Shown here in pieces: positions 13,553-43,121 of a stretch of DNA of 64,000 nt (the stretch's first letter is position 1; each line of letters begins with the position of its first letter). The stretch is from an uncultured Clostridia bacterium. Lineage in GTDB: Bacteria; Bacillota; Clostridia; Christensenellales; Borkfalkiaceae. The stretch spans positions 9,733-73,732 of the forward strand of contig CALGVF010000082.1 of the NCBI GenBank assembly GCA_937920115.1, written 5' to 3'. Made by a program: the position numbers and the translations under genes. The notes below the pieces were generated by a model that searched no databases, was not told where the DNA came from, and saw only the letters and a program-made list of their open reading frames with translations.

Positions 13553-13609
13553 AAACATATAAAAACACAACTAAATGTATTGATTTTTACATATTTTAAA
13601 GATAAATTT

Positions 13610-28558: not shown

Positions 28559-28644
28559 CAAGGCGAATAACGGGTTCGGAGTTTTCGCTCTTCGCTCGTT
28601 ACTTCGTAAAATTTTGACTCTTATCTCGGAGGCTTTCTACCCCT

Positions 28645-30155: not shown

Positions 30156-30169
30156 GGAGAGTTTTTACT

Positions 30170-30325
30170 ATGATTGATAGGTTTGCAAGGGAATTGCTTG
30201 CCTCTCAGGGAGAACGGAATCATTTTACGCGCGCTCTTATTGTTCGTACAGTAACTCCTTTAAAAATCGGTGAAACACCGGCTACAAACGAAGCGGTGAA
30301 GTACACCGATTTTTTTATACAATAA
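30170..30325 (+). CDS. Small protein (51 aa), tentative
   Basis: ATG with a strong RBS aaggagag. Confidence 0.4.
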   Translation: MIDRFARELLASQGERNHFTRALIVRTVTPLKIGETPATNEAVKYTDFFIQ

Positions 30326-30408
30326 GGTGGAAACCGAGTAAGCAGGAATGTAATAAAGATTATCCATTTTTAATAAAATGCGACTGGTTTATCGGTGGAA
30401 AGATTAGA

Positions 30409-30723
30409 GTGAGTAGTTATGAGGGATTGCAAAATGCGGCACAAAAAAATCCTTGGATAAAATTCCTCGTAGAATATACCACAATAAGCGTTCACGATTT
30501 TGCTCGAGCCAAAGCAAATCAGTTAATATCGTTTCCATTTTTTTTAAATTATACGAAATACGAATCGGAAATGCGCGCACAGATTCCGAATTGCCCAACT
30601 TACTACCCTTTTTATACCCCATATGAAGAATCAATGCGACAAGTTGAGTATAGAGAAGGCGTTTATATTAATAAAGGTAAAATGACCGAAAAAGAGAGGT
30701 TCAAAGGACTTTATGACGATTAA
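30409..30723 (+). CDS. Hypothetical protein (GTG start)
   Basis: 104-aa ORF with RBS ggtggaaag. Its end overlaps the portal start. Confidence 0.4.
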   Translation: MSSYEGLQNAAQKNPWIKFLVEYTTISVHDFARAKANQLISFPFFLNYTKYESEMRAQIPNCPTYYPFYTPYEESMRQVEYREGVYINKGKMTEKERFKGLYDD

Positions 30724-32395
30724 GGAATGGTTTCAGAAGAAGTTGTTCGGACGTAGCGGGATAGCGAAAGAGAACGGAAAGCCCGACCCCGAGCGACTGA
30801 CTTTTATAAATAATAATGACGCGCTCACACGTACACGTATACGCGAATATAATATATGGTACGGTGGGGACGGTGACGAATTACTGAATTACTATACCCA
30901 CGCGAATATGTACGAAGCAAACTACGAGCCGTTTTATGCGAGAAACAAGAGAAGTTACTTTTGGGCGATATCGTCGACCGAAACGGATATCAAGAGAACG
31001 CATAGCGGACAGCCCCGGAACATAGTCGATACGCTTGTGGGGATATGCCGATTTCCGACGATAAGTTCGAAAGTTACCGGGGACGGGCAGAACATAGTCG
31101 ACGCGAACCTGAGAAAGATAATCGAAGAGGGGCGGCTGAAAGACGTGTACAGACAGGAACAGTTACCGCTAACGTTAGTCGAGGGTTGGGGCTGTTATAA
31201 AATATGTTGGGATAAAGACATATCGGATTATCCGTTCGCAACATATTACAGAGCAGAGAACGTCGACTTTATATATAAAAGCAATCGGATAGTGAGTGTG
31301 GTTTTTAAAGATTACTACACAGCAGAAGATGGGAAACAGTATATGCTCGCCGAAACGCGAAGCATAAAATACGATAAAGACGAAGATAACCGTTATCTTG
31401 CGATCGAATACGAATTGTTCAGACTATCGGGAAGCGACGATGACATAGCCGCCGCCGAAAAAATAGACTTGAAAAGCATAGAGAAGTTCGCAGAGTTGCA
31501 GGATATGAAAGTGTCGAACTGCAATTTACTGCTCGCAGTGCCTTGTATCTTATTTGCGAATACGTCGAAAGTCGGCGGGTACGGCAGATCGATATTCACA
31601 GGCAAAATCGATTTGTTCGATGATTTGGATCAGTGCTTATCGCAAGCATCGAACAGTGTGAGAAAATCCACACCAGTTGAATACTTCAATGCAGATTATC
31701 TCGAGAGGGATCCGAAAACGGGAATGCCGATACAGCCGCATGCGTATGACCGAAAGTATACGATAATAAACGGACAGCGGAATTCGGATGGAACGAGTAC
31801 GGGCGAAGCCGTGCAGACGACGCAACCGAATATCGACTTCGGGCAGTACAGCGAGCAAGCCGTGCAGATACTCTTACAAATCATAAACGGTGTAATGTCG
31901 CCGGCGACGTTGGGAATCGATATAGCAAAGAAAGACAACGCCGAGGCTCAACGTGAGAAAGAAAAAGTAACGATATTCACGCGAAACGGGATAATCGATA
32001 GCGAAACGCTGATCCTGAAATCTTTGTGTTCGCAGTTACTGTGTGCGAAAGAGTTGATGGACAGCGAGAAGATAACCGTTCGGGACTACGATATATCGGT
32101 GAAGTTCAGCGAGTTTGCAGACGATAGTTATGAGAACAAACTCGAAAAACTCGGAGCGGCTTTGGACGCGCAGTGCATTTCCGAAGAAATGTATATGGCA
32201 AAACTGTACGGCGATACACTTCCGGCAGACGAATTCGAGCGCGAAAAGCAGTGGCTAATCGAACATCATACGCGTCCGCGTGACGAGGGAATGCTCGGAA
32301 TAGCCGGCGGCGGGGCTAATTTACCCGGGATGAACGGCGAACCGACGCTCGAAAACGAGGCAAACGGCGAAATCGGCGCAGAAGAAAACGTATAA
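30713..32395 (+). CDS. Portal protein
   Basis: 560 aa. Size, head-module position and acidic C-terminus fit SPP1-gp6-like portals. Confidence 0.75.
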   Translation: MTIKEWFQKKLFGRSGIAKENGKPDPERLTFINNNDALTRTRIREYNIWYGGDGDELLNYYTHANMYEANYEPFYARNKRSYFWAISSTETDIKRTHSGQPRNIVDTLVGICRFPTISSKVTGDGQNIVDANLRKIIEEGRLKDVYRQEQLPLTLVEGWGCYKICWDKDISDYPFATYYRAENVDFIYKSNRIVSVVFKDYYTAEDGKQYMLAETRSIKYDKDEDNRYLAIEYELFRLSGSDDDIAAAEKIDLKSIEKFAELQDMKVSNCNLLLAVPCILFANTSKVGGYGRSIFTGKIDLFDDLDQCLSQASNSVRKSTPVEYFNADYLERDPKTGMPIQPHAYDRKYTIINGQRNSDGTSTGEAVQTTQPNIDFGQYSEQAVQILLQIINGVMSPATLGIDIAKKDNAEAQREKEKVTIFTRNGIIDSETLILKSLCSQLLCAKELMDSEKITVRDYDISVKFSEFADDSYENKLEKLGAALDAQCISEEMYMAKLYGDTLPADEFEREKQWLIEHHTRPRDEGMLGIAGGGANLPGMNGEPTLENEANGEIGAEENV

Positions 32396-32404
32396 ATTAG
32401 TGTG

Positions 32405-32440
32405 GCGGACGAGAGAAAAGCGGTCTTTCGTCCGTTTTTT
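32405..32440 (+). terminator. Rho-independent terminator
   Basis: CGGACGA (32405-11) / TCGTCCG (32427-33) followed by TTTTTT. Confidence 0.65.
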
Positions 32441-32475
32441 ATTAAGCAATACCGTGCTAATCAGGTGAAATTCTA

Positions 32476-33237
32476 ATGAAAGTTAAGCAAAACCCACTAA
32501 CAATTTTAGACTACAAGCGGATGACGGACGAAGCGTTTAAGGCAATAGTAGACGGAATAGAGCGAAAAACGAGCATATCGGAGTTTGAAAAGTCCTATAG
32601 CCGTGCGTTAAAAATGTATAATTATGCAAAAAAAGGTGAATATTATGCAATTTTAGACGCTGTTATGCAAGTCTACCGTGCCACTAAAAGAGCAACCGAG
32701 AGCGGAAAATGGACGGATATTTTGGCTCAGACTGCGACGTTCAATCGGATATTTTATGCCTGCAAGAGATCCTCGGAAAGTACGCGGATCGAGGTCAAAA
32801 AGGACGCCGTTCGCCGTGCGTTTGATAGGGGCTTTATATTCTTTATCTGCACAACGCACCCGAATTCAGCGAGCGATCACCGCGACCTGCAAGGCAAAAT
32901 TTACGTCGATAAAAATTGGCGTTCGCGGGTGAAGCCTGAACTGTATCTTGCCGTGCTATCGTACATTGAACTGCGGCATATTATGACGGTTCAGGAAGTT
33001 ATGGGAAAGCCGTATTGGCTGACTACTCGTCCGTATTGCGGGCATCGACTGAAGCCGATTCCTATCCGTACCGTGCTTGATACTCCGCAAAATTTGCTCG
33101 TTCAGACATACGCGGAAGTCAAGCCAAAGCGGATTACGAGCGAGCAGGACTACTATAATTTCCGTCGGGAAGTGTATCAGAAACTGTACGACCGAGTACC
33201 CGTGCAAGCATTCGACCGCAAGCGACGCACAAAATAG
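32476..33237 (+). CDS. Minor head / head-morphogenesis-like protein (tentative)
   Basis: 253 aa directly after the portal, with RBS aggtga. Only weak resemblance to the gp7/MuF class. Confidence 0.45.
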   Translation: MKVKQNPLTILDYKRMTDEAFKAIVDGIERKTSISEFEKSYSRALKMYNYAKKGEYYAILDAVMQVYRATKRATESGKWTDILAQTATFNRIFYACKRSSESTRIEVKKDAVRRAFDRGFIFFICTTHPNSASDHRDLQGKIYVDKNWRSRVKPELYLAVLSYIELRHIMTVQEVMGKPYWLTTRPYCGHRLKPIPIRTVLDTPQNLLVQTYAEVKPKRITSEQDYYNFRREVYQKLYDRVPVQAFDRKRRTK

Positions 33238-33272
33238 AAAACCTTAGAATTTATGCGGGGTTTTGCGAGGCA

Positions 33273-33328
33273 ATGTATCTATTTTGTAGGTGTAAGCCCG
33301 TGCGGGATGTATCCGTTTTGTAGGGGTA
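33273..33328. repeat. Two 22-nt direct repeats
   Basis: ATGTATCTATTTTGTAGGTGTA (33273-94) and ATGTATCCGTTTTGTAGGGGTA (33307-28). Confidence 0.8.
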
Positions 33329-33421
33329 CTTACAGGCTTTGCTATGTGGAATATTACATACCGATATATTGCGGACGTGATACCGCGAGCCGTGCAAGTC
33401 ATATCAATACAGAGTAATAAA

Positions 33422-33446
33422 GGACGGACTTCCCGCCGTCCTTTTC
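33422..33446. terminator. Bidirectional terminator at the convergent junction
   Basis: GGACGG (33422-27) / CCGTCC (33436-41), flanked by T-runs on both strands. Confidence 0.6.
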
Positions 33447-33454
33447 TGTTGCCC

Positions 33455-33670
33455 TCAGAACATCTCGTTCTCGACCTTTTGGATAACCTCAAACAATGCG
33501 CTTTGGCTTGCTTTAAACGACTCGTAAGCGTTACCACCCGCCGCCGCGAACTTGCTTTCGTTGCTTGCGTTATCCGTGTAGATTGCCTTTAATTGTCTGA
33601 GCGATAAGATGCCGAACGCGTACATTCTGCGGTATAATCCGTAATATAACTCGCGTTGCTTTTCGTCCAT
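33455..33670 (-). CDS. Hypothetical protein (71 aa)
   Basis: ATG at 33670 with RBS aaggggtgag. Last gene of cassette 1. Confidence 0.5.
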   Translation of the reverse strand: MDEKQRELYYGLYRRMYAFGILSLRQLKAIYTDNASNESKFAAAGGNAYESFKASQSALFEVIQKVENEMF

Positions 33671-33681
33671 TATCTCACCCC

Positions 33682-33816
33682 TTATAAATTCCCGTTTATG
33701 AGCATACCGAGGGCGAAAAAGCCCGCGATAAATGCCCATAACGCTAAGTTTATTAGTATTCCTTTTATGCTCGGAAATGGTTGCTTGTTGCCATAATCTA
33801 AGAATTTACGATCCAT
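33682..33816 (-). CDS. Small TM protein (44 aa), tentative
   Basis: MDRKFLDYGNKQPFPSIKGILINLALWAFIAGFFALGMLINGNL with RBS aaaggaag. Confidence 0.4.
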   Translation of the reverse strand: MDRKFLDYGNKQPFPSIKGILINLALWAFIAGFFALGMLINGNL

Positions 33817-33849
33817 TGCGTTCTACTTCCTTTATGTATATTTATGCAA

Positions 33850-34161
33850 TTAAAGCATTTCGCTTGCTGACGGAACGTAAAAATGGATTTCAGATTTTCC
33901 GTTCACTTCTCCGTCCATCCATTCGTTATTATAAGAGAGTTTAACCGTTGCGCCCCAACCGCTTTTATTTGCAACTTGTATCGCGTAATTCGGGTTAACT
34001 TTCTCGCCCGTTGCCCATACACCCTGATGTAATACAACATAGGGATATTGCTTTATAAAATCCATAAGGGATCTTTCGATATCATCTTCCGGAAATTTAA
34101 ACGTTTTGTTTTCGTCAATGTGTCCGAGTTCTAACAAGTTAATATCTTTAAATTCTGTCAT
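33850..34161 (-). CDS. Hypothetical protein (103 aa)
   Basis: First gene of cassette 1. RBS aaaggag lies downstream of the promoter at 34192-34220. Confidence 0.55.
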   Translation of the reverse strand: MTEFKDINLLELGHIDENKTFKFPEDDIERSLMDFIKQYPYVVLHQGVWATGEKVNPNYAIQVANKSGWGATVKLSYNNEWMDGEVNGKSEIHFYVPSASEML

Positions 34162-34188
34162 TAATATAAATCTCCTTTCTTTTATGGT

Positions 34189-34268
34189 TATATTATACCA
34201 TATATAGATAGCGTTGTCAAGTATTTAAACAAACTTTTTTAAAATATTTTTATCCTGAAACCGTCCGC
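34189..34268. repeat. 80-nt exact repeat (copy 1) carrying promoter and UP region
   Basis: Identical to 34999-35078. Confidence 0.85.
34192..34220 (-). promoter_or_regulatory. Leftward consensus promoter P1
   Basis: On the minus strand: TTGACA (34220-15), 17-nt spacer, TATAAT (34197-92). Lies within an 80-nt exact repeat. Confidence 0.7.
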
Positions 34269-34409
34269 CCGGGAACGGCTACCGAGTAGCACGGACCTCA
34301 TCGGACTGCCCGGAGATAAAGTGATTTTCTGTTGTGGATATTCTCCGATAGGCTACGCGCCGTAACGCGGATTCGGGGTGCGGGGTGACGGCTTTGCACG
34401 GCTATATAA

Positions 34410-34443
34410 GACAAAAGAAAAACGGAACGATTTCCGCTCCGTT
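34410..34443 (-). terminator. Leftward terminator
   Basis: Minus strand: AACGGA-loop-TCCGTT followed by TTTTCTTTTG. Confidence 0.6.
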
Positions 34444-34451
34444 TATTCTTG

Positions 34452-34682
34452 TTATTTGCCTTGTATGCCTTGCAAAAAGTCTTTAACCATTGCCAAGCAA
34501 CTATCTGCCGTTACGCAGATTTTAAACGAGTTGTTCTCGCAGGTGACATGTAAATATTCTTCGTCACCGTCAAAGATATAATCGCAATCATTAAAGCCTG
34601 CCTGCCTTGCTAATGGCTTTATAATATTGACTGTAAAGCGTCTTTTGCCCATGTAATTTTCGCCGTATAATGGTTTTCTCAT
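34452..34682 (-). CDS. Hypothetical protein (76 aa)
   Basis: Second gene of cassette 2. Terminator directly downstream. Confidence 0.5.
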   Translation of the reverse strand: MRKPLYGENYMGKRRFTVNIIKPLARQAGFNDCDYIFDGDEEYLHVTCENNSFKICVTADSCLAMVKDFLQGIQGK

Positions 34683-34684
34683 TG

Positions 34685-34957
34685 TTACGCCCTCCCTGAG
34701 TTTATTTTGTCCGCTGTTTCGCTTAATATCGAGCGGTATTCTCTTTCGCCGTCATCCGTCCCGCGATCTTCGTTTTCTTCGTCATAAACGGCACACAAGC
34801 CTAACATAGTCAACTCTGAATTGTTAAGTCCAAAACTTTCTTTTAACCATTCCGAAACGGCTACATCGCCATCTTCTTCAGTTTTTTGCTTTATGATTTC
34901 ATTAAATAGCCATAGCCTGAAATCATCAATCATGTTGTACGTTTTCTTTTCGTCCAT
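34685..34957 (-). CDS. Acidic hypothetical protein (90 aa)
   Basis: ATG at 34957 with RBS aaaggag. The track start at 34987 is too close to the TSS. Confidence 0.5.
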   Translation of the reverse strand: MDEKKTYNMIDDFRLWLFNEIIKQKTEEDGDVAVSEWLKESFGLNNSELTMLGLCAVYDEENEDRGTDDGEREYRSILSETADKINSGRA

Positions 34958-34998
34958 ATATAAATCTCCTTTGCAATGGCTTTCCATCCACTTGCAAG

Positions 34999-35078
34999 TA
35001 TATTATACCATATATAGATAGCGTTGTCAAGTATTTAAACAAACTTTTTTAAAATATTTTTATCCTGAAACCGTCCGC
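34999..35078. repeat. 80-nt exact repeat (copy 2)
   Basis: Identical to 34189-34268. Confidence 0.85.
35002..35030 (-). promoter_or_regulatory. Leftward consensus promoter P2
   Basis: TTGACA (35030-25), 17-nt spacer, TATAAT (35007-02). Confidence 0.7.
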
Positions 35079-35111
35079 AACCCGCCGCCCGGAGATTAGC
35101 ACGGACTATAT

Positions 35112-35141
35112 AGAAAAAAGGCGGAACGCAATGTCCCGTCC
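35112..35141 (-). terminator. Leftward terminator (imperfect stem)
   Basis: GGACG/CG(T)TCC stem with one bulge, followed by a TTTTTT run on the minus strand. Confidence 0.4.
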
Positions 35142-35169
35142 TTTTCCTTGATTGAGATTTATATATATG

Positions 35170-35376
35170 TTATGTGTGAGCGTAAATATTAAGGTTAAAA
35201 TCGTTTTTAGTGGATCGCGTTGTCTTTATTGCTTTATTGAAATAATCTATCGCGGATTGTTTATCTTCGGTGTACATCATACCATAGGCGACTGCCTTTG
35301 TTTGACGTTCAACGCCATAAAGTCCGCAATCATATTTTACAAGGCATATCGAGCCTTTTCTCGCTAATATAATCAT
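35170..35376 (-). CDS. Hypothetical protein (68 aa)
   Basis: Last gene of the four-gene cassette 3. Confidence 0.5.
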   Translation of the reverse strand: MIILARKGSICLVKYDCGLYGVERQTKAVAYGMMYTEDKQSAIDYFNKAIKTTRSTKNDFNLNIYAHT

Positions 35377-35379
35377 CGT

Positions 35380-35538
35380 TTATTCTCCCTTTGCTTGCTG
35401 TTCGAGCATTGTGTATTTTAAATCGTATAACTTCGTCAATTTAGCCGTTATTCTATCCTGTTCGACCTGATTGCCGTCCGCTTCTCTTCGGGCGATTAAA
35501 AGCCGTCCTATGGCTTCCTTTAACGCTTCTATCGTCAT
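35380..35538 (-). CDS. Small helical protein (52 aa), tentative
   Basis: MTIEALKEAIGRLLIARREADGNQ... with an ATGA overlap with the upstream gene. Confidence 0.4.
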   Translation of the reverse strand: MTIEALKEAIGRLLIARREADGNQVEQDRITAKLTKLYDLKYTMLEQQAKGE

Positions 35539-35840
35539 AATAAATTCTCCATAATCCATTCAATCGCCTGCTTTTCGGTATGTCCCGGGTGTTCTTTCGA
35601 CCATTGTTTGAGCCTTAACTCTTTTGTCTTTCTATCGATTGATCCGGCGGGAGTATCCGCAATAGCGATTTCAAAGCCGTTTAACGCTCTTTTCATTTTA
35701 CCATCTTCGAGTTCTTCGTATGGTATCAGACCGTAATATGTGTTATTGTTTTCCGTTCTGTTATGGTATTTCGGGTTCGTATCGGTTATCAATACGAACT
35801 CGCGATTCATTATATTTACATTTTTTGTTAAAACTTTCAT
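35535..35840 (-). CDS. Hypothetical protein (101 aa)
   Basis: ATG at 35840, 1 nt after the upstream stop. RBS ggtga. Confidence 0.5.
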   Translation of the reverse strand: MKVLTKNVNIMNREFVLITDTNPKYHNRTENNNTYYGLIPYEELEDGKMKRALNGFEIAIADTPAGSIDRKTKELRLKQWSKEHPGHTEKQAIEWIMENLL

Positions 35841-35841
35841 A

Positions 35842-36057
35842 TCATTCACCATCCTTTTCAACTTCAAATTTTGCCTCGGAAATCAGTAAATATAATTTCT
35901 TATACTTCTCTGCTTCTTTGAGATAAAATTGTTTTAAGCCGGAAACTTCGGCTTCTTCTGCGTACTTCTGAGCGCGTTCGATTATGGAATCCAACGTCGC
36001 CAAAATTTCGCCCGTCTGAGTACCATCAAGTTTTACTACTTTTACCAACCTTTCCAT
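35842..36057 (-). CDS. Hypothetical coiled-coil protein (71 aa)
   Basis: First gene of cassette 3. RBS aaaggag. Confidence 0.5.
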   Translation of the reverse strand: MERLVKVVKLDGTQTGEILATLDSIIERAQKYAEEAEVSGLKQFYLKEAEKYKKLYLLISEAKFEVEKDGE

Positions 36058-36099
36058 ATTATATAAATCTCCTTTGGCTCTCGCCCTTCAACTATCTAT

Positions 36100-36128
36100 A
36101 TTGCACCATATCTTGATAGCAATGTCAA
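36100..36128 (-). promoter_or_regulatory. Leftward promoter P3
   Basis: TTGACA (36128-23), 17-nt spacer, TGgTGCAAT (36108-00). Confidence 0.5.
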
Positions 36129-36204
36129 CTATTTTTCGCAACTTTTTGAAAGTATTTTTATTTTTTCTTCGCCCGGAGAACGGCTCGCAATTTTGCACGG
36201 CTAC

Positions 36205-36238
36205 CGGGATAAAAAAAGCGAGGATTTCTCCCCGCTTT
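36205..36238 (-). terminator. Leftward terminator
   Basis: AAGCGGGGAG...CCTCGCTT stem followed by TTTTTTT on the minus strand. Confidence 0.55.
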
Positions 36239-36241
36239 CGG

Positions 36242-36823
36242 TTAGTCGCATAAAAACTCCCACGAACTGATTTTTCTAAGTCCGTAACGCTTTAAATACG
36301 TTTGTAAGCGTTTTTCAAAACGTTCTTTGCATTTCTTCAACGCGACTATGTAACCCGCTCTATCGTCGGCAGAAATGACTTTGTGCGGCTTGTTTCCGTA
36401 ATACGTTGAATGTTTATATTCAGACATAAAGCCGACCGTATAAAAGCCGTTCAAGCCTGTTCCGAACAGATAGCCGTTTCTTGTTTCGTCCTCGGCTTGC
36501 TTTATCTGAACGTCTATCTGTTTCAGATTTTCCGAAATGAAAAACTTTTCAGATTTTCTCGCCCGTTCCGCAAGATCTGAGGCTTCGTTCATCTGTTCCT
36601 GACTTGAAACGCCACAGAATCCATAACCAAAACAAAACGATGTTTTTATCTTCGGCTTTTCAATTTCTACGATCTCCCCCGATGTTAATTCCGTTAGGCT
36701 ATCGAGATATGTATTTTTTAACCATTTAACATACTTGCGGCTGTTTTCGTCGTCGCCGTATTTTTTAATGTAACTGTTTTCAAGTGTTGCGTATAAGTCT
36801 TTTACTTCTTTTAAATTTTTCAT
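36242..36823 (-). CDS. Hypothetical protein (193 aa)
   Basis: ATG at 36823, 1 nt after the upstream stop. Confidence 0.5.
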   Translation of the reverse strand: MKNLKEVKDLYATLENSYIKKYGDDENSRKYVKWLKNTYLDSLTELTSGEIVEIEKPKIKTSFCFGYGFCGVSSQEQMNEASDLAERARKSEKFFISENLKQIDVQIKQAEDETRNGYLFGTGLNGFYTVGFMSEYKHSTYYGNKPHKVISADDRAGYIVALKKCKERFEKRLQTYLKRYGLRKISSWEFLCD

Positions 36824-36824
36824 A

Positions 36825-37169
36825 TTATTTCTCTCTTCTTGCCTCAATTTCTTTTTTCTTTTTAAGTAGTTTATTTGCGAGTTCTGAATACATACATTGT
36901 ATCTTTTCCGCATCTTCTATAAGGGTACTTATAGAACTCGGGACACCGTAAGTTCCTCTCATTTCAATCAACGGCTCAACGTGTTCGTCTATATCGAATG
37001 ACAGAGCAATCTCGCTCACTTGCACAAAAATGTCCGCATCTTTGTTAAGATATTCAACCAAATTCTCACCAGCGGGTGACCAGTTTTCTATCTCAATATC
37101 TTTATTCGTAACGTTAACATTCCATCCGCAATCTTTAATTACTTTTAAATATTCTTTGTATCCTTTCAT
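36825..37169 (-). CDS. Hypothetical protein (114 aa)
   Basis: ATG at 37169 with RBS agagagg. Confidence 0.5.
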   Translation of the reverse strand: MKGYKEYLKVIKDCGWNVNVTNKDIEIENWSPAGENLVEYLNKDADIFVQVSEIALSFDIDEHVEPLIEMRGTYGVPSSISTLIEDAEKIQCMYSELANKLLKKKKEIEARREK

Positions 37170-37219
37170 ATATACAACCTCTCTTTTTGTGAACGTTTCC
37201 CCGCTCACTTTCTGATTAT

Positions 37220-37248
37220 ATTATACTACATATAGATAGCATTGTCAA
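37220..37248 (-). promoter_or_regulatory. Leftward consensus promoter P4
   Basis: TTGACA (37248-43), 17-nt spacer, TATAAT (37225-20). Confidence 0.7.
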
Positions 37249-37440
37249 CCGTTTAAACAAACTTTTTAAAAAATTTTTTAATTATTTTTGACTTGCTCTG
37301 CGTCCGGAGATTTGCACGGCTTGCGTCTGTTCTGCTATGATGTGATATCCACAAGAAAAACTCCGGGCGGTGCTTTGTGGTTTTTCCGTTCGCTCTGTTC
37401 TGTCGTCGAAGTTCTTAGCACGGCTTACGGAAGGCAAAAA

Positions 37441-37474
37441 GAAAACCGCCCTTTCGAGCGGTTTTTCGATTTTA
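37441..37474 (-). terminator. Leftward terminator overlapping the stop codon
   Basis: AAACCGC/GCGGTTT stem followed by TCTTTTTG on the minus strand. Confidence 0.6.
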
Positions 37475-37903
37475 TCCGATTGCTATTATGTTTGATATTT
37501 TAATGTCAAAACAAGCCGTTTGACTGCTTTTTCTGTCGCTGACGAGTTTCTGTTCAACAAGTTCCGCCTTCGTCGTTTTTTCGCCATTTATCGTCCATTC
37601 AGAACGCGTTACCGTATGCGTTGTATAAACTCGCAACATATATTCGCCCGTCTTTTCCGACTGTAAGATATAATTAACGTCGCCGTCTTTCCATACCTTA
37701 CCATTAAGCCCGCCCGTTTCCTTGTTTACGTTCGCTTTCAGGTGCGAGTAATTTATTCCTAAGCGGTAAACGCCTTTACACTTTTTGACGATGTTTTTAT
37801 CTCTACCCGCCGCAAACGTATAAGGGTTAGCGTAATACTCTATGCAAACGAACGCGCCTTTTCTTTTGTCTTTTGCCTTTTCGATAACTTCTTGTAATTC
37901 CAT
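37472..37903 (-). CDS. Hypothetical protein (143 aa)
   Basis: Single-gene cassette 5. RBS agagagg. Confidence 0.55.
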   Translation of the reverse strand: MELQEVIEKAKDKRKGAFVCIEYYANPYTFAAGRDKNIVKKCKGVYRLGINYSHLKANVNKETGGLNGKVWKDGDVNYILQSEKTGEYMLRVYTTHTVTRSEWTINGEKTTKAELVEQKLVSDRKSSQTACFDIKISNIIAIG

Positions 37904-37943
37904 ATATATACCTCTCTTTTGCCTTTCGGCTTTATCTATATAT

Positions 37944-37972
37944 AGTATACTATATTTAGTTTATTTTGTCAA
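37944..37972 (-). promoter_or_regulatory. Leftward promoter P5
   Basis: TTGACA (37972-67), 17-nt spacer, TATACT (37949-44). Confidence 0.65.
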
Positions 37973-38041
37973 CTATTTTTCGCAAGTTTTTTAAAATATT
38001 TTTTATTGTCTGATAGCCGGATGTTTTGCACGGCTACCCGA

Positions 38042-38072
38042 AGATAAAAAGAAAACGCCCTTTCCGGGCGTT
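38042..38072 (-). terminator. Leftward terminator
   Basis: AACGCCC/GGGCGTT stem followed by TTCTTTTTAT on the minus strand. Confidence 0.65.
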
Positions 38073-38077
38073 CGCTT

Positions 38078-38683
38078 TTAATGTAATTTAAAGTAAACCG
38101 CTTGCCCCTCTCTCAGGCTCCAACAACTTTTGCAGAACTTGCAAGAGCCTTGACAAGGGATCGCAAACTCGGGGATGTTATTTTCGGCGGGATCTTTTAA
38201 CTCTACATATGCAACCGGGAAATTATGCGGATTGTCGACTTTAAACGATTTTCCCCAACCACTGAAAACGATATGCAAATTATCGGGAATGTTTCCGCCG
38301 TTCGCGATAAACTCGTTGACGATTTCAAATTTTTTAGTAAATGCTAAAAATTTTGTATCGGGGGAATTTTTCGCGATGTTTATCATCATTTCAAAAAACT
38401 TTTTATTGACGATATCGCCCGAAGAAAACCAACGAAAGAAACGATAAACAATATCGCCGTTATTGATCCATTCGGTAACGTCTTTTTCGAGTTTTTCGGG
38501 GTTGTTTATAAACTCGTTCAGGTTGTTTTTTAAAGATTGTTGAACGTTACCATACATCCAATTACCTTTGCAAGCATAGCAATTTTTTTTACAAGGCGCA
38601 TCGCATCTACAAGTTACGATCGCGGGAAGATTAAACGAAGGGATTTTGTCCCCGAGTTTACTGTTACTTAAAGAAATATGCAT
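38078..38683 (-). CDS. GP88-like Cys-rich protein (tentative family call)
   Basis: 201 aa from the ATG at 38683 (RBS ggtga). N-terminus SLSNSKLG...FNLPAIVTCRCDAPCKKNCYACKG. C-terminus CQGSCKFCKSC. Confidence 0.5.
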   Translation of the reverse strand: MHISLSNSKLGDKIPSFNLPAIVTCRCDAPCKKNCYACKGNWMYGNVQQSLKNNLNEFINNPEKLEKDVTEWINNGDIVYRFFRWFSSGDIVNKKFFEMMINIAKNSPDTKFLAFTKKFEIVNEFIANGGNIPDNLHIVFSGWGKSFKVDNPHNFPVAYVELKDPAENNIPEFAIPCQGSCKFCKSCWSLREGQAVYFKLH

Positions 38684-38739
38684 CTCAATCACCATTGCAA
38701 GCCGTTCGCATCGGCTCGCCCTTTCTTTTTTCTGATTAT

Positions 38740-38768
38740 ATTATACTATATATTGATAACAATATCAA
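38740..38768 (-). promoter_or_regulatory. Leftward promoter P6
   Basis: TTGATA (38768-63), 17-nt spacer, TATAAT (38745-40). Confidence 0.6.
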
Positions 38769-38987
38769 CTATTTTTAACAACTTTTTTAAATTATTTTTT
38801 ATATTTTTGTCGCGTATTTGCCCGGGTATACGCGTATATAGGCACGGGCAACATATATCTTTTATGAACGCCCGCCCCGCCCCTCGCCGAAGTTCCACAA
38901 GCAAAGCAAAGCAGGGTAGGGGTGGTGGGCGAAAGGTATTTTGCAGGAGTGTGTTAAGTGAATCATCCCTCCCGCGTCCAACCCAAC

Positions 38988-39064
38988 CTTAGGCAGTTTT
39001 TAAATTTCCCGTAGCGACCTTAGGCAGTTTTTGAGATAATCCAAACCAAACTTAGGCAGTTTTT
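38988..39064 (+). promoter_or_regulatory. Three iterons CTTAGGCAGTTTTT
   Basis: Exact 14-mers at 38988-39001, 39019-39032 and 39051-39064, spaced 31 and 32 bp. Confidence 0.75.
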
Positions 39065-39621
39065 GACAAAGCAATGCAACCCGACTAATTTTTTTTGCAA
39101 ATGAAGTTATATAACAAAACAAACAAATTTAAAAACGAGCCAAAAAGAATTGTGATAGTGGAGTGATAAAAGTAAAATAAAGCAATTTTAAGTGCAATTT
39201 TTAAAATCGCAAAAATCTACTGTAATTATCGTTTTTTTTGGTGTGGATTTACCCTCTTTTGGCATATTATTATGTATTTTTCTATATTATATACGTGAAA
39301 ACGAGAAAAGAAATATATATAAAGGAATAGAAAAATATACATTATTTTACGCAAAAATAGGCAAATAAAGTAGAAAAAGTCGAGAAATTATCGAAGATTT
39401 TGGAGAAAACAAAAACTGCACTTAAATTTAAAACTCGGCATTAAATTATGACGAAGCAGTGAAAATGCGACCAAAAAGACCGAAAAGTCGCAAAAGTCGC
39501 AAGAAAACGAAAACAAATCTCTTCTCAATCAGAAGTGTGGATATTCCTTTCCGCTTACTGCAATACAGAAACGGGGTAACAGGGGAAACCGCAAAAATTT
39601 TAAAAATTTTCGTAAAAACTC

Positions 39622-39650
39622 TTTACAAAAAGAAAAATGTGTGGTATTAT
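39622..39650 (+). promoter_or_regulatory. Promoter of the scaffold/capsid operon
   Basis: TTTACA (39622-27), 17-nt spacer, TGgTATTAT (39642-50). Leader hairpin CCGACT/AGTCGG. Confidence 0.55.
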
Positions 39651-39719
39651 GTAGACGAAAAGGCATACCGACTGCCCTAAGTCGGGCATATTAACTCAAG
39701 GAGAGAGGTAAAATTCCGA

Positions 39720-40544
39720 ATGCAGAATGAAATCAAAGAAGAGGTAAAGAAACCCGAATCCGAAGCAGACAAAGAACTTAGCGATTTGTTTGTGAAAGAC
39801 GAGGAGGTGACCGCTACCGAAAACAATGCAGATACCCTTACTGCTGGGCAGGAAACCGACGGAACGAAAGAGGACATCGAAGTCAAAACCGAAGAGCCGT
39901 CCGTCGATATGTCGGCTGAAGAAAAAAGCGGCGCGGAAAATTTCGTAAAAACCGAAAACTTATCGCAAAAAGACACAGCGCAGACTGATGCGCCGGAAGT
40001 CGAAAAAGCGATATTCACGCAGTCACAGGTCAATAAATTGGCAGGCAAGGCAAGAGAAGAAGGCAGAGCGTCGGCTTTGAAAGAATTGTTTGCGAGATAC
40101 GGTGTGGCTGACGAGAACGAATTGAACGGAATATTCGGCAAAGGACAAACGTATGACGATCTGAACGAAGAATATGCCGCGCAGGGCAATTCGGTCAGAG
40201 AAGTCAGAGCCGAAAACGCTTTACTCAGAACGAACATAGTTCCCGAACGTTGGGACGACGTTAAAGCGATTCTTGGCACGAAAGGTCTTGAGGTTTCTCA
40301 GGAAAACATTACCGCAGAATTGGCGACGCATCCGGAATGGCGAGGAGCGAGTGTGGCAGTTGAATCGGAAAAGAAACCGTTCAGCCCGGAGTTGGGCGAG
40401 CAACTGAAGAACACGCCGACGCAGAAACCGGACGCGACGGAAAGCAAGATGTCGCCGCTCAGACGGTTAGGCACTGAAAACGGCGAAAACGAATCTCCCG
40501 AAGTTTCCGAAGAGAAGAAAATTCTTTCGATGTTCGGGCTGTAA
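39720..40544 (+). CDS. Scaffolding protein (DUF4355-like)
   Basis: 274 aa, acidic and helical. FTQSQVNKLAGKAREEGR is typical of phage scaffolds. Lies immediately upstream of the capsid gene. Strong RBS aaggagagagg. Confidence 0.65.
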   Translation: MQNEIKEEVKKPESEADKELSDLFVKDEEVTATENNADTLTAGQETDGTKEDIEVKTEEPSVDMSAEEKSGAENFVKTENLSQKDTAQTDAPEVEKAIFTQSQVNKLAGKAREEGRASALKELFARYGVADENELNGIFGKGQTYDDLNEEYAAQGNSVREVRAENALLRTNIVPERWDDVKAILGTKGLEVSQENITAELATHPEWRGASVAVESEKKPFSPELGEQLKNTPTQKPDATESKMSPLRRLGTENGENESPEVSEEKKILSMFGL

Positions 40545-40625
40545 AAACTTACGATTCGAACGAACCGAACTGTAAAAATTTTACGCAATCTAATTCTGTG
40601 GATTATCCAAAGGAGAAAGTGAATT

Positions 40626-41042
40626 ATGACTATCGATGAGGCTAAGAAAGCATTTGACGAAATGAGAGCGCAGGGCGCGGACGATAATGCGATACTCGGA
40701 ACGCTGTACAGAATGTTCCAAGACGACAAAATCGACGTAGAGCAACTCGGCGCGCTCGTAAACGTACTCGGATATGAACTTACGGACGAATTCAAGCAGA
40801 TGACGCCCGAAGATCAAAAGACGAAAGGTTGGGAAGCCGATGACGAAAGCGAAAAAGCGGAAGGCGTGACCGACGAAGAAGTCGAAAAAGCGAAAGAGTA
40901 CGGCGACGATCCTGACGAAAGGAGCGGTAACGCATCCGACGAAAAATCGGACGAAACGGATGCCGAATCCGATAAAAAGGACGAGGAAGAATCCGACGAG
41001 GAAGCGACTAAAAAGGCGAGGAAAATATTCGGTTTGGACTAA
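40626..41042 (+). CDS. Highly acidic small head-module protein
   Basis: 138 aa with RBS aaaggag. Asp/Glu-rich C-terminal half ending in KIFGLD. Confidence 0.55.
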   Translation: MTIDEAKKAFDEMRAQGADDNAILGTLYRMFQDDKIDVEQLGALVNVLGYELTDEFKQMTPEDQKTKGWEADDESEKAEGVTDEEVEKAKEYGDDPDERSGNASDEKSDETDAESDKKDEEESDEEATKKARKIFGLD

Positions 41043-41069
41043 AAATTTATTTTTTTAGGAGAAACCTAT

Positions 41070-42281
41070 ATGGCTGGTAACAATATAGAACTTATTACCA
41101 AGTATAGCACCAAAGCGTTCGACGAAGTTTACAAACAGGAATCGGTTACGGCGGCTTTGGACGTCCCCAACGCGTTTATGGAATTCACGGGTGCAAAGAC
41201 CGTTAAAATCAGAAAATTCCAGACGGGCGGACTTAACAGTTATTCGAGAAACAACAACGCGGGCGGTTACGGCGACACGAGAATTGATCAGCCTTCGGGC
41301 GATTATTATGGTTCTGCGGGATTCGGTTATAAGCAGACGAGCGCGAAAGTCGAATGGGAAGAAAGAACCCTTAAGATGGACAGAGCGGCGGCTATTCCGA
41401 TTGAGTATTTCGATAACGAGGAAGCGGGCGGCGACGTAGTATCGCTTACGGCATCCGAATTTATGAGAACCGTTATGGTCCCCGAAAACGACGCGTACAC
41501 GCTTTCGACGATTGCGGCGAATGCGGGTAAGGTTGTATCCGAGGCAATCGCAGACAATAAAGCCCTTGCGGCATTAAACAGCGCGTTCCTGTATTTCGAG
41601 GAAAACGAAGTTCCCGCAAACGATCAGGTTATCTTCGCGTCGCCGGCATTCATGAAGAAACTTCGTGAAACGACCGAAATGACGAGATTCCTCGGCGAGG
41701 ATGTAAAAGACAGAAAAGTCAATTACAAAATCACGAATTACGAAGGTAGAGATATTATCACGGTATCTCCGCAGAGGCTTCATACGGGCTTCAAGGCTTA
41801 CGAAGGCGGTTATGGATGGGCAAGCGGTTCTGCGGCTATCAACTTCCTTGCGGTAGCGAAATCCGCAGTCGTACACGTTAAAAAATTCGAGCAGTTGAAA
41901 ATCGTAAGCGGCGACATGAACCTTGCCGGTAACGGATTCGACGGTTACACGATTTATGCACGTATGTATTACGATGTGTTTGTACTCGACAACAAGAAAT
42001 ACGGTATTTACGCGAGCATTTCGGCGACTGCTGAAACCGCAGACGTCCCTATGGTAAAACTTGAAATCGAAACGGACACCGCGCATAAGATTACCAAGAT
42101 TACCACTACTCCTCCGAACACGCTTTGCTTTGTAGCGACGGGAACTAAGTCCGGTACTTCCTTGACTTCGCCTGTTCTTGCAAAAGTTGGCGATACTGTT
42201 GCTCAGGATGCTAAGTATTACGCAATTACTTCCGATAAGACCATTATCAGTAACGAAGTAAGCCCCAATCCTAAGGGTTAA
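41070..42281 (+). CDS. Major capsid protein with C-terminal Ig-like extension
   Basis: 403 aa, follows the scaffold, RBS taggag, terminator follows. The fold was not verifiable by eye. Confidence 0.7.
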   Translation: MAGNNIELITKYSTKAFDEVYKQESVTAALDVPNAFMEFTGAKTVKIRKFQTGGLNSYSRNNNAGGYGDTRIDQPSGDYYGSAGFGYKQTSAKVEWEERTLKMDRAAAIPIEYFDNEEAGGDVVSLTASEFMRTVMVPENDAYTLSTIAANAGKVVSEAIADNKALAALNSAFLYFEENEVPANDQVIFASPAFMKKLRETTEMTRFLGEDVKDRKVNYKITNYEGRDIITVSPQRLHTGFKAYEGGYGWASGSAAINFLAVAKSAVVHVKKFEQLKIVSGDMNLAGNGFDGYTIYARMYYDVFVLDNKKYGIYASISATAETADVPMVKLEIETDTAHKITKITTTPPNTLCFVATGTKSGTSLTSPVLAKVGDTVAQDAKYYAITSDKTIISNEVSPNPKG

Positions 42282-43044: not shown

Positions 43045-43121
43045 CGCGGAATAGAGAAACCCGGAATCTCGCATGGCTCATAACCATGAAATTGCTGGTT
43101 CAAATCCGGCTTCCGCAACCA
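43045..43121 (+). tRNA. tRNA-Met (anticodon CAT) with initiator-like features; encoded CCA
   Basis: Full cloverleaf. Acceptor CGCGGAA/TTCCGCA (C1xA72 mismatch). D arm GAGA-AACCCGGAA-TCTC (A11:U24). Anticodon arm CATGG-CTCATAA-CCATG. T arm GCTGG-TTCAAAT-CCGGC. ACCA end. Confidence 0.85.

Follow-up and report, generated by a model that had tools for sequence, protein, structure and literature searches.

A leftward row of six promoter-gene-terminator cassettes within a strand-polar CCGTGC array in the head module of an uncultivated Bacillota-type phage

The stretch of DNA analysed here (64,000 nucleotides, the window) comes from an uncultivated phage of Gram-positive (Bacillota-type) bacteria. 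Its head module includes a portal gene (30713-32395, phrog_533, 1.2e-42), a conserved 253-aa gene, a scaffold candidate (39720-40544) and a major head protein gene (41070-42281, phrog_422, 8e-55). The minor head and scaffold labels given to the second and third of these in the initial annotation are weakly based, the former on position and a MuF-like local match (E 0.038) and the latter on a weak phrog_2303 match (0.005), and both are treated here as putative. Between the portal and 253-aa genes on one side and the scaffold and major capsid genes on the other, a block on the minus strand (33455-38830) consists of six self-contained units, each with a promoter, one or more genes and a terminator. 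This layout, first observed in the initial annotation, was confirmed by promoter, ORF and terminator calls. The GC content of the block is 0.38-0.39, resembling the early region, and that of the flanking head genes is 0.43-0.48. In distant relatives the portal-side and scaffold/capsid genes are contiguous, in one case (L007) as TerL-portal-589 aa-scaffold-MCP on one strand, and the head module appears to have been contiguous ancestrally. The features of the block and the adjoining gene are as follows:

32476-33237, plus strand: conserved 253-aa gene, putative minor head protein
38737-38816, minus strand: P1 regulatory cassette; -35 TTGATA 38768-38763, 17-nt spacer, -10 TATAAT 38745-38740
38078-38683, minus strand: U1 ORF, 201 aa, GP88 family (Pfam PF17338), Cys-rich (CxxxCxxC)
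38053-38073, minus strand: T1 terminator, -17.0 kcal/mol, scored on the plus strand too
37941-38020, minus strand: P2 regulatory cassette; -35 37972-37967, -10 TATACT 37949-37944
37472-37903, minus strand: U2 ORF, 143 aa, family F5, 132 homologs
37442-37465, minus strand: T2 terminator, scored on the plus strand as well
37217-37296, minus strand: P3 regulatory cassette; -35 37248-37243, -10 37225-37220
36825-37169, minus strand: U3a ORF, 114 aa, family F20, acidic (comparison with relatives)
36242-36823, minus strand: U3b ORF, 193 aa, family F7, 58 homologs
36214-36239, minus strand: T3 terminator, -16.0 kcal/mol, then TTTTTTT
36097-36176, minus strand: P4 regulatory cassette; -35 36128-36123, -10 TGCAAT 36105-36100, upstream TG
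35170-36057, minus strand: U4 operon of four ORFs (gene calls), 35842-36057 (71 aa), 35535-35840 (101 aa), 35380-35538 (52 aa) and 35170-35376 (68 aa)
35122-35141, minus strand: T4 terminator, -16.8 kcal/mol
34999-35078, minus strand: P5 regulatory cassette; -35 35030-35025, -10 35007-35002, TG-extended, identical to P6 over 80 nt
34452-34957, minus strand: U5 operon, 34685-34957 (90 aa, pI 4.3) and 34452-34682 (76 aa, family F0)
34420-34444, minus strand: T5 terminator, -16.4 kcal/mol
34189-34268, minus strand: P6 regulatory cassette; -35 34220-34215, -10 34197-34192, TG-extended
33455-34161, minus strand: U6 operon, 33850-34161 (103 aa), 33682-33816 (44 aa, hydrophobic) and 33455-33670 (71 aa)
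33423-33437, no single strand: convergent, probably bidirectional terminator common to U6 and the rightward 253-aa gene

The six promoters lie in related 80-nt cassettes that form a repeat family in the window and share one plan, with an A/T tract, a TTGACA-type -35 (TTGATA at P1), a 17-nt spacer and a TATAAT-like -10. All six -35/-10 coordinate pairs proposed earlier were correct, and the two cassettes reported as exact 80-nt copies (P5 and P6) are indeed 100% identical; the four others are 64-71% identical to this reference sequence. A near-consensus promoter had been claimed for every unit. With at most 1 mismatch allowed, this holds for five, with 12 of 12 consensus positions at 37248, 35030 and 34220 and 11 of 12 at 38768 and 37972; the promoter at 36128/36100 is weaker (TTGACA-17-TGCAAT with TG upstream), and relatives have TACAAT where P4 of the window has TGCAAT. 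Three promoters carry a TGn extension (the upstream TG of P4 and the TG-extended P5 and P6). The A/T stretch described as common to all six, AAAATATTTTAAAAAA, is exact at three promoters and differs by 1 nt at one and by 2 nt at two, and the sequence said to be shared by two others was recovered as TAGTATAATATAATCAGAA in P1 and P3. The window has 13 near-consensus promoters where 0.70 would be expected (13 reached in 0/100 shuffles), and the five within the block are all on the minus strand. A looser scan as a whole was not above chance (17 found, 19.6 expected), so significance is restricted to the near-consensus class. The same class, with A/T tracts, precedes rightward replication and accessory genes at 2018, 2536, 19265, 23415 and 28530.

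All six units are closed by a hairpin of -14 to -17 kcal/mol and a T-run, the weakest T-run being that of U6. T1 is probably bidirectional, and A-tract/T-tract symmetry would probably allow the terminators to work in both directions. In the short leaders that follow the promoters, marked hairpins were found at P1 (-13.8 kcal/mol) and P3 (-10.8 kcal/mol, z -5.2), with a weaker one in three further leaders.

As described in the initial annotation, each terminator follows one to four small ORFs. These are preceded by strong Shine-Dalgarno (ribosome-binding) sites and number 13 instead of roughly 14; independent gene calls concur. The view that no protein was recognisable apart from a GP88-like one was borne out, as 12 of the 13 had no described family in Pfam, PHROGs, NCBIfam or PADLOC and the U1 protein matched PF17338 (4.6e-25, 89 bits, cut-off 24.4) and has 229 homologs. 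Among 50,697 phage records, homologs were found for none of the array proteins except this one. Three proteins were searched in metagenomic protein collections, and each has uncharacterised homologs there. For U3a and U3b, the contig of one homolog each was inspected, and the setting was one of small ORFs in phage or prophage accessory regions; in one U3b homolog there is a fusion with an ArdA N-terminal domain. For U2, the fold prediction (pLDDT 95.7) matched no solved structure, and that for U3b (pLDDT 95.4) matched nothing in PDB or BFVD. The 76-aa U5 protein (family F0) was also found in a distant relative (L017). Family scans matched no known defence or anti-defence family among the array proteins, leaving the earlier suggestion of an anti-defence array with contextual hints only.

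A leftward promoter array occupies the same position in 11 related contigs with differing contents. It was seen in all nine close relatives (253-aa protein 94-97% identical), six of which span the array and keep four or six promoters, while three contigs end within it; in two relatives at about 60% identity the position likewise holds leftward consensus promoters, with nearly all ORFs different. The initial annotation had asked whether cassettes are gained and lost as units, and in this comparison both whole cassettes and single ORFs were gained or lost. One relative (L014) is without two whole cassettes, U3 and U4, and the resulting junction falls within the promoter core, running from P3 upstream sequence through -35, spacer and -10 into the P5 leader. 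The upstream types of P5 and P6 are B and B in the window and A and A in L001, and L003 and L004 combine A at P6 with B at P5; these neighbouring promoters show gene conversion. ORF replacement, insertion and deletion were observed in promoter-proximal slots at 33851-34187, 36812-37194 and 35913-36054, and the slot directly downstream of a promoter is the most frequent site of ORF swaps. The first U6 ORF gives way in five relatives to a 181-185 aa DUF6927 protein, and U3a is present only in the phage of the window among the 11 relatives compared, the others having something else or nothing in that slot. Within U4 it is the first and last ORFs that vary, an internal ORF indel lies at 35180-35389, and L012 has additional ORFs. 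Repeated and kept similar, the ~80-110 bp regulatory cassettes represent portable homology, and recombination between promoter copies appears to remove whole cassettes and homogenise adjacent promoters. Most ORF replacements, however, have one boundary in a promoter or leader and the other at a gene junction with little homology, so promoter-promoter recombination cannot account for all turnover. The conserved promoter spacers could mark an operator instead of recombination-driven homogenisation.

The row of cassettes lies within an array of the hexamer CCGTGC that is conserved and strand-polar, a new result of this analysis; the copies form two converging strand-pure groups around the row:

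31809-33395, plus strand: left arm, 11 CCGTGC copies
34289-38847, minus strand: right arm, 8 CCGTGC copies, at 34289, 34396, 35099, 36195, 37314, 37418, 38028 and 38842

Nineteen of the 20 copies in the window fall within 31809-38847, with a single switch of strand; outside it there is 1 copy where about 14.6 would be expected, a figure scaled from 16.5. Left-arm sites lie in the portal 3' end (two), after the portal terminator (one), inside the 253-aa gene (six) and in the spacer 33238-33454 (two). Each of the eight right-arm copies is in a spacer between cassettes, with five (34396, 35099, 36195, 37418, 38028) 15-20 nt past a terminator stem and six (34289, 35099, 36195, 37314, 38028, 38842) 61-79 nt upstream of a -35. 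The six copies in the 253-aa gene, in two reading frames, compare with 0.51 expected, and six were reached in 0/5000 synonymous-codon shuffles. The motif is kept where relatives differ in amino acids or reading frame (relative positions 475, 595 and 723/724), and the strand partition is identical in all relatives, with no other copy within +/-10 kb. The motif is conserved as DNA, within coding sequence too, and the array is under DNA-level selection.

We interpret the block, with a probability of about 0.62, as a hyperplastic accessory-gene region of six independent leftward transcription units served by the host primary-sigma RNA polymerase. Each unit would be transcribed without need of a phage factor, and the units would fire at once on infection, yielding 13 small proteins in large amounts. 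Such early and strong expression is predicted from consensus matching; the putative rightward head-operon promoters at 28530 and 39622 are likewise sigma-A-like, so a consensus promoter by itself is no proof of early timing. Together with the convergent terminator at 33423-33437, the unit terminators would shield each unit from its neighbours and from rightward transcription of the head genes, with transcription of the scaffold/capsid operon presumably restarting at its own promoter-like site at 39622. The array proteins are most likely non-essential, host-directed factors of takeover, counter-defence or exclusion, a repertoire that shuffling may tune.

The closest described analogue is the PeSL (promoter-early stem-loop) system, in which the hyperplastic regions of T4-type phages carry mobile regulatory cassettes (Arbiol et al. 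2010, PMC2839356; Comeau et al. 2014, PMC4122927); it is a better match than morons or the SPO1 host-takeover module. Both systems have repeated intergenic cassettes of ~100 bp in which a strong primary-sigma promoter, with an A/T-rich tract upstream, is combined with a terminator stem-loop; these cassettes flank small orphan ORFs in a region that varies among close relatives (PMC2839356, PMC4122927), and in both, recombination between cassette copies gives deletions and replacements, as in the L014 promoter-core junction and the P5/P6 upstream conversion. In contrast to PeSL, the present phage is of ~75 kb with a Bacillota-type host, the terminator is upstream of and separate from the promoter instead of overlapping it, the six cassettes are one inverted block within the head module, and an invariant CCGTGC stands between terminator and promoter. 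Neither megablast of 30000-42000 nor tblastn of the capsid protein matched T4-type phages.

The likeness to the SPO1 host-takeover module drawn earlier holds for architecture, and no array protein has a homolog in SPO1. That module, as summarised in PMC6873191, and the present array both group mostly small genes into several short operons of a phage of a Gram-positive host, and in both the promoter and ribosome-binding sites of each operon are of the kind seen in early genes with high expression. The SPO1 module lies in the terminal redundancy, unlike the present array in the head module, and repeat-mediated shuffling is not described for it. Taken as a whole, the initial interpretation is partly supported, standing for the architecture, with the SPO1 likeness confined to layout and morons a poor fit. 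It had overlooked the polar CCGTGC array and did not name the PeSL analogue.

Position between portal and scaffold/capsid genes might instead suggest late-expressed proteins of head assembly, or accessory proteins of the virion, whose function explains their place in the head module. We consider this very improbable given the opposite strand with its own consensus promoters and terminators, the turnover of content between phages that are 94-97% identical in the flanking head genes, whole cassettes dispensable in L014, distant relatives that build heads without the block, and the lack of any structural-protein family match. Lysogenic-conversion morons, expressed constitutively from a prophage to the benefit of the lysogen (exclusion or fitness factors, for example), are an unlikely explanation too. 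Autonomous promoter-gene-terminator units between late genes, with a composition unlike the flanks (here a lower GC), are the classic layout of lambdoid morons (Hendrix and colleagues; discussed in PMC2839356), and at another locus the genome encodes a small HTH_3 protein. Morons as defined there, however, are single, typically prophage-expressed units whose regulatory sequences are unrelated and which presumably arrive by illegitimate recombination, and the regulatory sequences here are a repeated, recombining family, making the earlier moron label a poor fit. The search for lysogeny functions was negative: no integrase or recombinase appeared in gene calls or family scans over ~73 kb of the 75.3-kb source contig, and among 185,579 species-representative genomes no close relative is integrated (best portal match 41% identical). 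The phage also encodes its own primase-helicase, helicase and exonuclease, and its replication region is rich in promoters of the consensus class found in the array.

A doubtful but more probable alternative takes the CCGTGC array as the primary feature, a cis-acting DNA system with the gene cassettes as passengers in insertion-tolerant intervals. Beyond the polarity, local enrichment and conservation described above, its copies past terminator stems lie at roughly the distance needed for a roadblock to hold polymerase on the U-tract, and their spacing in two long spacers (104-107 nt) resembles that of most neighbouring left-arm copies (92-149 nt). The copies could be stoperator-like roadblocks that reinforce the adjacent terminators, Chi-like sites on either side of a break or terminus, or a signal for packaging, partition or fork trapping. 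In Cluster A mycobacteriophages, stoperators are likewise short, asymmetric, multi-copy sites, mostly in short intergenic spaces, and the orientation of CCGTGC similarly tracks local transcription on both arms; stoperators, however, are 13-mers bound by the immunity repressor over whole temperate-phage genomes (PMC9283540), whereas the CCGTGC core of 6-8 nt is short for a repressor site, is confined to a 7-kb domain and also occurs within coding sequence. Terminally clustered, oriented Chi sites of lambdoid phages such as LLS are also short, polar, strongly strand-biased and locally clustered (PMC12315714), but CCGTGC forms two opposed groups converging on an internal point, and its depletion elsewhere in the genome has no obvious cause under a Chi role. 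As a pac or cos signal the domain would be much larger than any known, with the terminase 21 kb off. A primary role of the array would be compatible with the hyperplastic-region explanation preferred here, and the array may contribute to termination and insulation or to recombination.

The minus strand of 33455-38830 is made up of six consecutive promoter-ORF(s)-terminator units (U1 to U6, counted from the right), as the initial annotation had described. The regions upstream of these units belong to one repeat family (D1), for which a repeat search returned six 80-nt copies, here called P1 to P6:

38737-38816, minus strand, D1 copy P1
37941-38020, minus strand, D1 copy P2
37217-37296, minus strand, D1 copy P3
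36097-36176, minus strand, D1 copy P4
34999-35078, minus strand, D1 copy P5
34189-34268, minus strand, D1 copy P6

P5 and P6 are 100% identical, bearing out the exact 80-nt duplicate claimed before, and the other four copies are 64-71% identical to that reference. Every cassette has a TTGACA-type -35 box (TTGATA in P1) separated by 17 nt from a TATAAT-like -10 box, and the six -35/-10 pairs lie exactly where they had been placed (38768/38740, 37972/37944, 37248/37220, 36128/36100, 35030/35002 and 34220/34192). Three promoters match the consensus at 12/12 positions, two at 11/12 and the sixth at 10/12; the weakest (36128/36100) has a -10 box TGCAAT preceded by TG, where relatives carry TACAAT, and a TGn extension is present at P4, P5 and P6. 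Near-consensus promoters number 13 in the window versus 0.70 expected; the count in a looser scan was not above chance, so only the strict near-consensus class carries weight. The six aligned upstream regions have an A/T tract in common (AAAAATATTTTAAAAAAGTT), and the promoter spacer is unusually conserved across the cassettes (AYGCTATCTATATATGG), with similar spacers seen by inspection in two promoters that point rightward (19265 and 23415). When IMG/VR was searched for the exact consensus of these promoters, only the same four contigs matched, which makes this promoter flavour lineage-specific.

Each of the six units terminates in a hairpin (-14 to -17 kcal/mol) followed by a T-run. The first five of these terminators (T1 to T5) sit approximately 85-235 nt upstream of the next -35 box, with the shortest distance between T1 and P2 and the longest between T2 and P3 and between T5 and P6, and T6 closes the array. 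Several terminator hairpins have an A-tract upstream and two terminators were also scored on the plus strand; the units are probably insulated by bidirectional terminators. Leader hairpins were predicted at P1 (-13.8 kcal/mol) and P3 (-10.8 kcal/mol, z -5.2), with weaker ones at P2, P4 and P5 and none in the P6 leader. No credible Rfam match was found in 32000-40000, where two sub-threshold matches were terminator look-alikes, and the array block contains no tRNA genes. The units hold 13 ORFs with Shine-Dalgarno sites (1, 1, 2, 4, 2 and 3 in U1 to U6), a count backed by independent gene calls on the source contig; the small-ORF content previously proposed stands, with 13 proteins instead of roughly 14. 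The block can be described as six repeated and conserved promoter-like and terminator-like units, and their transcription is probably by host sigma-A polymerase early in infection.

The source contig is metagenomic (75,305 nt), and all genes outside the array block were called on the plus strand. The head genes around the array are arranged as follows:

10204-11760, plus strand, TerL, 19 kb upstream of the portal gene
30713-32395, plus strand, portal gene (phrog_533), left of the array
32476-33237, plus strand, conserved 253-aa gene between portal and array, no family match; labeled minor head from its position and one weak MuF-like local match
33455-38830, minus strand, the array
right flank of the array, approximately 0.9 kb of non-coding sequence, then plus-strand genes for scaffold (weak match), a 138-aa ORF and the major head protein (phrog_422)

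L007, a distant relative whose flanks are long enough for the comparison, has the genes for TerL, portal, a 589-aa protein, scaffold and capsid side by side on one strand. The leftward block is therefore a lineage-specific interruption of an ancestrally contiguous head module, and since TerL and portal are adjacent in L007 and 19 kb apart here, the module has been interrupted twice. In the window, the gap between TerL and portal is filled by a TnpB gene, two DNA methyltransferases and dozens of small rightward ORFs. The TnpB-like ORF (13580-14872; phrog_506, 4e-103) has a RAGATH-18 RNA after it (14813-14872, 60 bits), so that this phage genome carries an IS605-type TnpB together with its guide-RNA scaffold; by inspection, the stretch after it does not resemble array sequence, and a guide targeting the array was rejected.

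Besides the two methyltransferases and the TnpB-like gene, the window encodes a primase-helicase, a helicase and an exonuclease. Gene calls and family scans covering approximately 73 kb of the 75.3-kb contig revealed no integrase; among 185,579 species genomes no relative was integrated, and the closest portal protein there is 41% identical. The phage is probably lytic. No nucleotide similarity to isolated phages was found. The host is likely to be of Bacillota type, given the ribosome binding sites and promoter type, portal proteins of distant relatives in Clostridia/Bacillota MAGs, and capsid matches to phages of Listeria, Bacillus and Streptococcus.

We compared 11 related loci from IMG/VR and metagenomes, with array ORFs grouped into families by clustering. 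The 253-aa protein is 94-97% identical to that of the window in nine loci and approximately 60% identical in two (L016 and L017), and close relatives have approximately 87-92% nucleotide identity across the region. Among the six close-relative contigs spanning the array, five have the six-promoter scaffold and one (L014, 78 kb) has four promoters, lacking U3 and U4. At the L014 junction, P3 upstream sequence continues through -35, spacer and -10 and is followed by the P5 leader, which places the crossover inside the promoter core of approximately 30 nt. The 20 nt upstream of the -35 box occur as two types, and P6/P5 carry A/B in L003 and L004, B/B in the window and A/A in L001; the shared type B accounts for the exact 80-nt duplicate in the window, and the pattern indicates gene conversion between P5 and P6, which are 0.8 kb apart. 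The loci show a cassette deletion by promoter-promoter crossover and a conversion of promoters, and the gain and loss that the initial annotation had proposed looking for in related phages is seen both in the missing U3 and U4 of L014 and in the swapping of single ORFs.

These swaps are concentrated at the promoter-proximal slots. The first ORF of U6 encodes 103 aa in the window and a DUF6927 protein of 181-185 aa in five relatives, and U6 of L012 has both types plus a paralog. In U3, the first ORF of the window (36825-37169) is found there only, four relatives having a different ORF of 88-92 aa and two having none. For the first ORF of U4 there are two alleles that share 37% identity; three loci have an additional 69-aa ORF, and the last ORF of U4 is present in some loci and absent from others. 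At the breakpoints of the U6 and U3 replacements, homology returns at the -10 box (34188) or inside the leader (37195, 37163), and the far boundary is the start of the next gene. In the more distant L016 and L017, leftward consensus promoters, terminators and small ORFs occupy the same position, with one ORF family in common with the window.

Three close-relative contigs end inside the array; for L012, L015 and L023 such ends fall at P5, within U4 and at P6. A reading of these ends as genome termini was set aside, repeats being the simplest cause of ends inside the array; they are consistent with repeat-induced or strain-heterogeneity breaks, are frequent among relatives, and metagenome assemblies therefore probably under-represent array variants. 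A free-standing HNH_3 (and weakly AP2-like) endonuclease gene, which has a consensus promoter of its own, is present in L012 (4904-5257, minus strand). It takes the place of window 33297-33454, precisely where the 253-aa gene and the array converge.

The GP88-like Cys-rich protein noted before was verified as the U1 product (38078-38683), which matches Pfam GP88 (PF17338) at 89.3 bits versus a gathering cut-off of 24.4 and contains a CxxxCxxC motif. Its homologs number 229 and are approximately 200 aa long, and PF17338 was found in all 120 that were listed of these 229. The remaining 12 of 13 proteins, described earlier as unrecognizable, indeed match no family in Pfam, PHROGs, NCBIfam or PADLOC, weak matches to Glyco_hydro_39, Ig_DR_A0283 and UrfF (E > 0.005) being attributed to chance, and have no homolog by tblastn in 50,697 phage records, where the GP88-like ORF alone was matched. 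Three array proteins were searched in metagenomic protein collections and all had homologs: 58 for the 193-aa protein (second ORF of U3), one distant homolog being fused to an ArdA N-terminal domain; 132 for the 143-aa protein of U2; and 54 for the 114-aa protein (first ORF of U3), one of them directly upstream of, and overlapping the start of, a gene for DUF5131, a family related to GP88.

The structural check that had been proposed was carried out on the 193-aa and 143-aa proteins. AlphaFold models were confident (pLDDT 95.4 and 95.7, respectively), Foldseek gave no match at E ≤ 0.001 for either model in the PDB or for the 193-aa model in BFVD, and a PDB sequence-profile search with both families returned nothing significant. 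The two proteins represent sizeable families with confidently predicted folds and no solved-structure match. In other elements, GP88 homologs are followed by an ORF of 143-145 aa and an RNA ligase gene, the three making up a conserved trio, and in one case they lie next to and downstream of NAMPT, Macro and NAD-synthase genes. Taken with the DUF5131 neighbor of the 114-aa homolog (loci L031 4205-9190, L032 6001-8198 and L035 8001-9055), these arrangements hint that such small ORFs are functionally linked to GP88/DUF5131-type Cys-rich proteins. The 143-aa U2 protein is not the 143-145 aa ORF found after GP88 in other phages (BLASTP E 0.33, hhalign probability 0.1%).

Several array proteins are acidic (pI 4.3-5.1), and the genomic context suggests a host-directed accessory role. 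The likeness to anti-defence arrays suggested earlier has indirect hints in its favor, namely the ArdA fusion and the GP88 homologs beside NAD-salvage and RNA-ligase genes, but no array protein matched a described anti-defence family in Pfam, PHROGs, NCBIfam or PADLOC. With high expression predicted, the 13 orphan proteins are a promising set in which to look for new activities in host takeover or counter-defence.

The closest described system is the hyperplastic region of T4-type phages, flanked by promoter-early stem-loop (PeSL) cassettes (PMC2839356, PMC4122927), to which the array is an analog rather than a member. As in PeSL cassettes, all six array promoters are, at the sequence level, strong primary-sigma-type promoters with an A/T-rich upstream region; a stem-loop terminator lies in the same intergenic cassette (six hairpins with T-runs); similar copies are repeated in a variable region of orphan ORFs (six D1 copies, 12/13 ORFs without family, varying content); and crossovers among close relatives fall inside the cassettes (the L014 core junction, the P5/P6 conversion and the -10/leader boundaries). 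PeSL cassettes, which also give rise to excised mini-circles during infection, are, however, a feature of T4-type myoviruses, whereas this phage has a genome of approximately 75 kb, and the best matches of its capsid protein are siphophage-type capsids from phages of Listeria, Bacillus and Streptococcus (approximately 28% identity). We place the array outside the PeSL family because of the lack of a T4-type match, its different terminator/promoter layout and its extra conserved element. Repeated promoter/terminator cassettes as gene-shuffling vehicles had until now been described for T4-type phages, whose hosts are Gram-negative; the concept is extended here to a phage lineage that is unrelated and has Gram-positive-type hosts, in a compact natural case where loss, conversion and replacement can be read from about a dozen environmental variants.

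The resemblance to SPO1's host-takeover module (PMC6873191), whose products shut off host macromolecular synthesis or division, that had been drawn holds for architecture, several operons of small genes with strong promoters and ribosome binding sites, as judged from DNA features only; it does not extend to homology, as tblastn of the 13 proteins against 50,697 phage records gave no match in SPO1, gp37-gp60 included. The comparison with morons, which are expressed from the prophage of a temperate phage, is a loose fit. The autonomous units are absent from this position in some relatives (the block is missing from L007, and U3 and U4 from L014); on the prophage side, no integrase was seen in approximately 73 kb of the contig and no integrated relative among 185,579 species genomes. 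The observation in the initial annotation is confirmed, and its interpretation is supported in part.

The extra conserved element is the hexamer CCGTGC, which is invariant upstream of all six array promoters, 61-79 nt before the -35 box, and recurs 15-20 nt past the stems of T1-T5 and of the portal terminator. Its total in the window is near chance (20 copies versus 16.5 expected) but its placement is extreme. Of the plus-strand copies, 11/12 fall in 31809-33395, and all eight minus-strand copies fall in 34289-38847, so that orientation follows transcription, 11 plus copies lying among rightward genes and 8 minus copies among leftward units, with the strand switch between 33397 and 34287. The HNH_3 gene of L012 is inserted in this switch region. 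Outside this domain there is one copy (2383) versus approximately 14.6 expected, and no further copy was found in other sequenced parts of the contig; this depletion suggests that ectopic copies would be harmful. The same partition is seen in every relative, with no copy elsewhere within ±10 kb, and in L016 and L017 the plus copies run past the 253-aa gene at a spacing of approximately 120-140 nt, where the sole conserved ORF is leftward and gene calls are uncertain.

Within the 253-aa gene there are six copies in two reading frames, a number reached in 0/5000 synonymous-codon shuffles (mean 0.51). Relatives retain the hexamer at relative position 475, where their residues are A, S or P, then V-L, and also at relative position 723/724, where the reading frame itself differs (P-V-Q versus P-C-K). 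Conservation of the hexamer through changes of residue and frame shows selection on the nucleotide sequence and not on the protein, and the signal of this selected polar domain is very strong statistically. Two 22-nt direct repeats (ATGTATCYRTTTTGTAGGKGTA; 33273-33294 and 33307-33328), with a CCGTGC copy between them, lie in the spacer that separates the 253-aa gene from the convergent terminator.

A tentative reading, to which we give a probability of roughly one in five, is that the array is a dedicated cassette-exchange platform built on a new cis-acting scaffold of two converging polar CCGTGC arrays, read by a candidate phage or host protein. Such a reader might act on transcription, stalling polymerase at the terminators next to it and so insulating or shutting off units conditionally, or it might act on DNA by directing breaks and recombination; the intervals between hexamer copies would be sanctioned landing sites for self-expressing accessory genes. 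The constant distance to the terminators fits a roadblock stalling polymerase at the U-tract, by analogy with stoperators (PMC9283540), which are likewise asymmetric sites oriented with transcription but are bound by an elongation-blocking phage repressor and occur genome-wide, whereas 19/20 copies of CCGTGC lie in 7 kb. The converging polarity would also fit Chi-like sites around a break, for which there is precedent (PMC12315714). Chi sites are read by AddAB/RecBCD of the host, in whose genome they are over-represented and skewed.

Other readings of the hexamer were set aside. A CCGTGCWA hairpin with a downstream CCGG loses its pairing between relatives by inspection; sigma-54, MotA-box and alternative -10 readings lack a second element at constant distance; and for pac, cos or ori sites the domain is too large and the terminase genes are 21 kb away. 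A reader of CCGTGC, if identified, could reveal a new phage regulatory or recombination device, and the chief value of the locus is its clean comparative record of cassette shuffling together with this strongly selected polar domain.

Several observations were made in the flanking regions. A 482-aa ORF downstream of the capsid gene (44115-45563) matches ADP-ribosyltransferase toxin families (phrog_3895, 1e-18; phrog_16625, 7e-16), and a tRNA-Met (CAT) gene lies within the structural region (43045-43121). The long non-coding regions 27300-28640 and 38830-39620, the latter with a GC-rich hairpin at 38866-38932, have motifs in common in inverted orientation: AAACTGCCTAA(A/G) occurs twice on the plus strand (28023, 28043) and three times on the minus strand (38988, 39019 and 39051, 31-32 nt spacing), and a similar segment of approximately 57 nt, including an exact 19-mer, is present in both (28254-28310 and 39183-39239). 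Each region is followed by a rightward promoter 'aaaaactcTTGACA/TTTACA' (28530, 39622), and the two may contain regulator-binding or origin-like sites.
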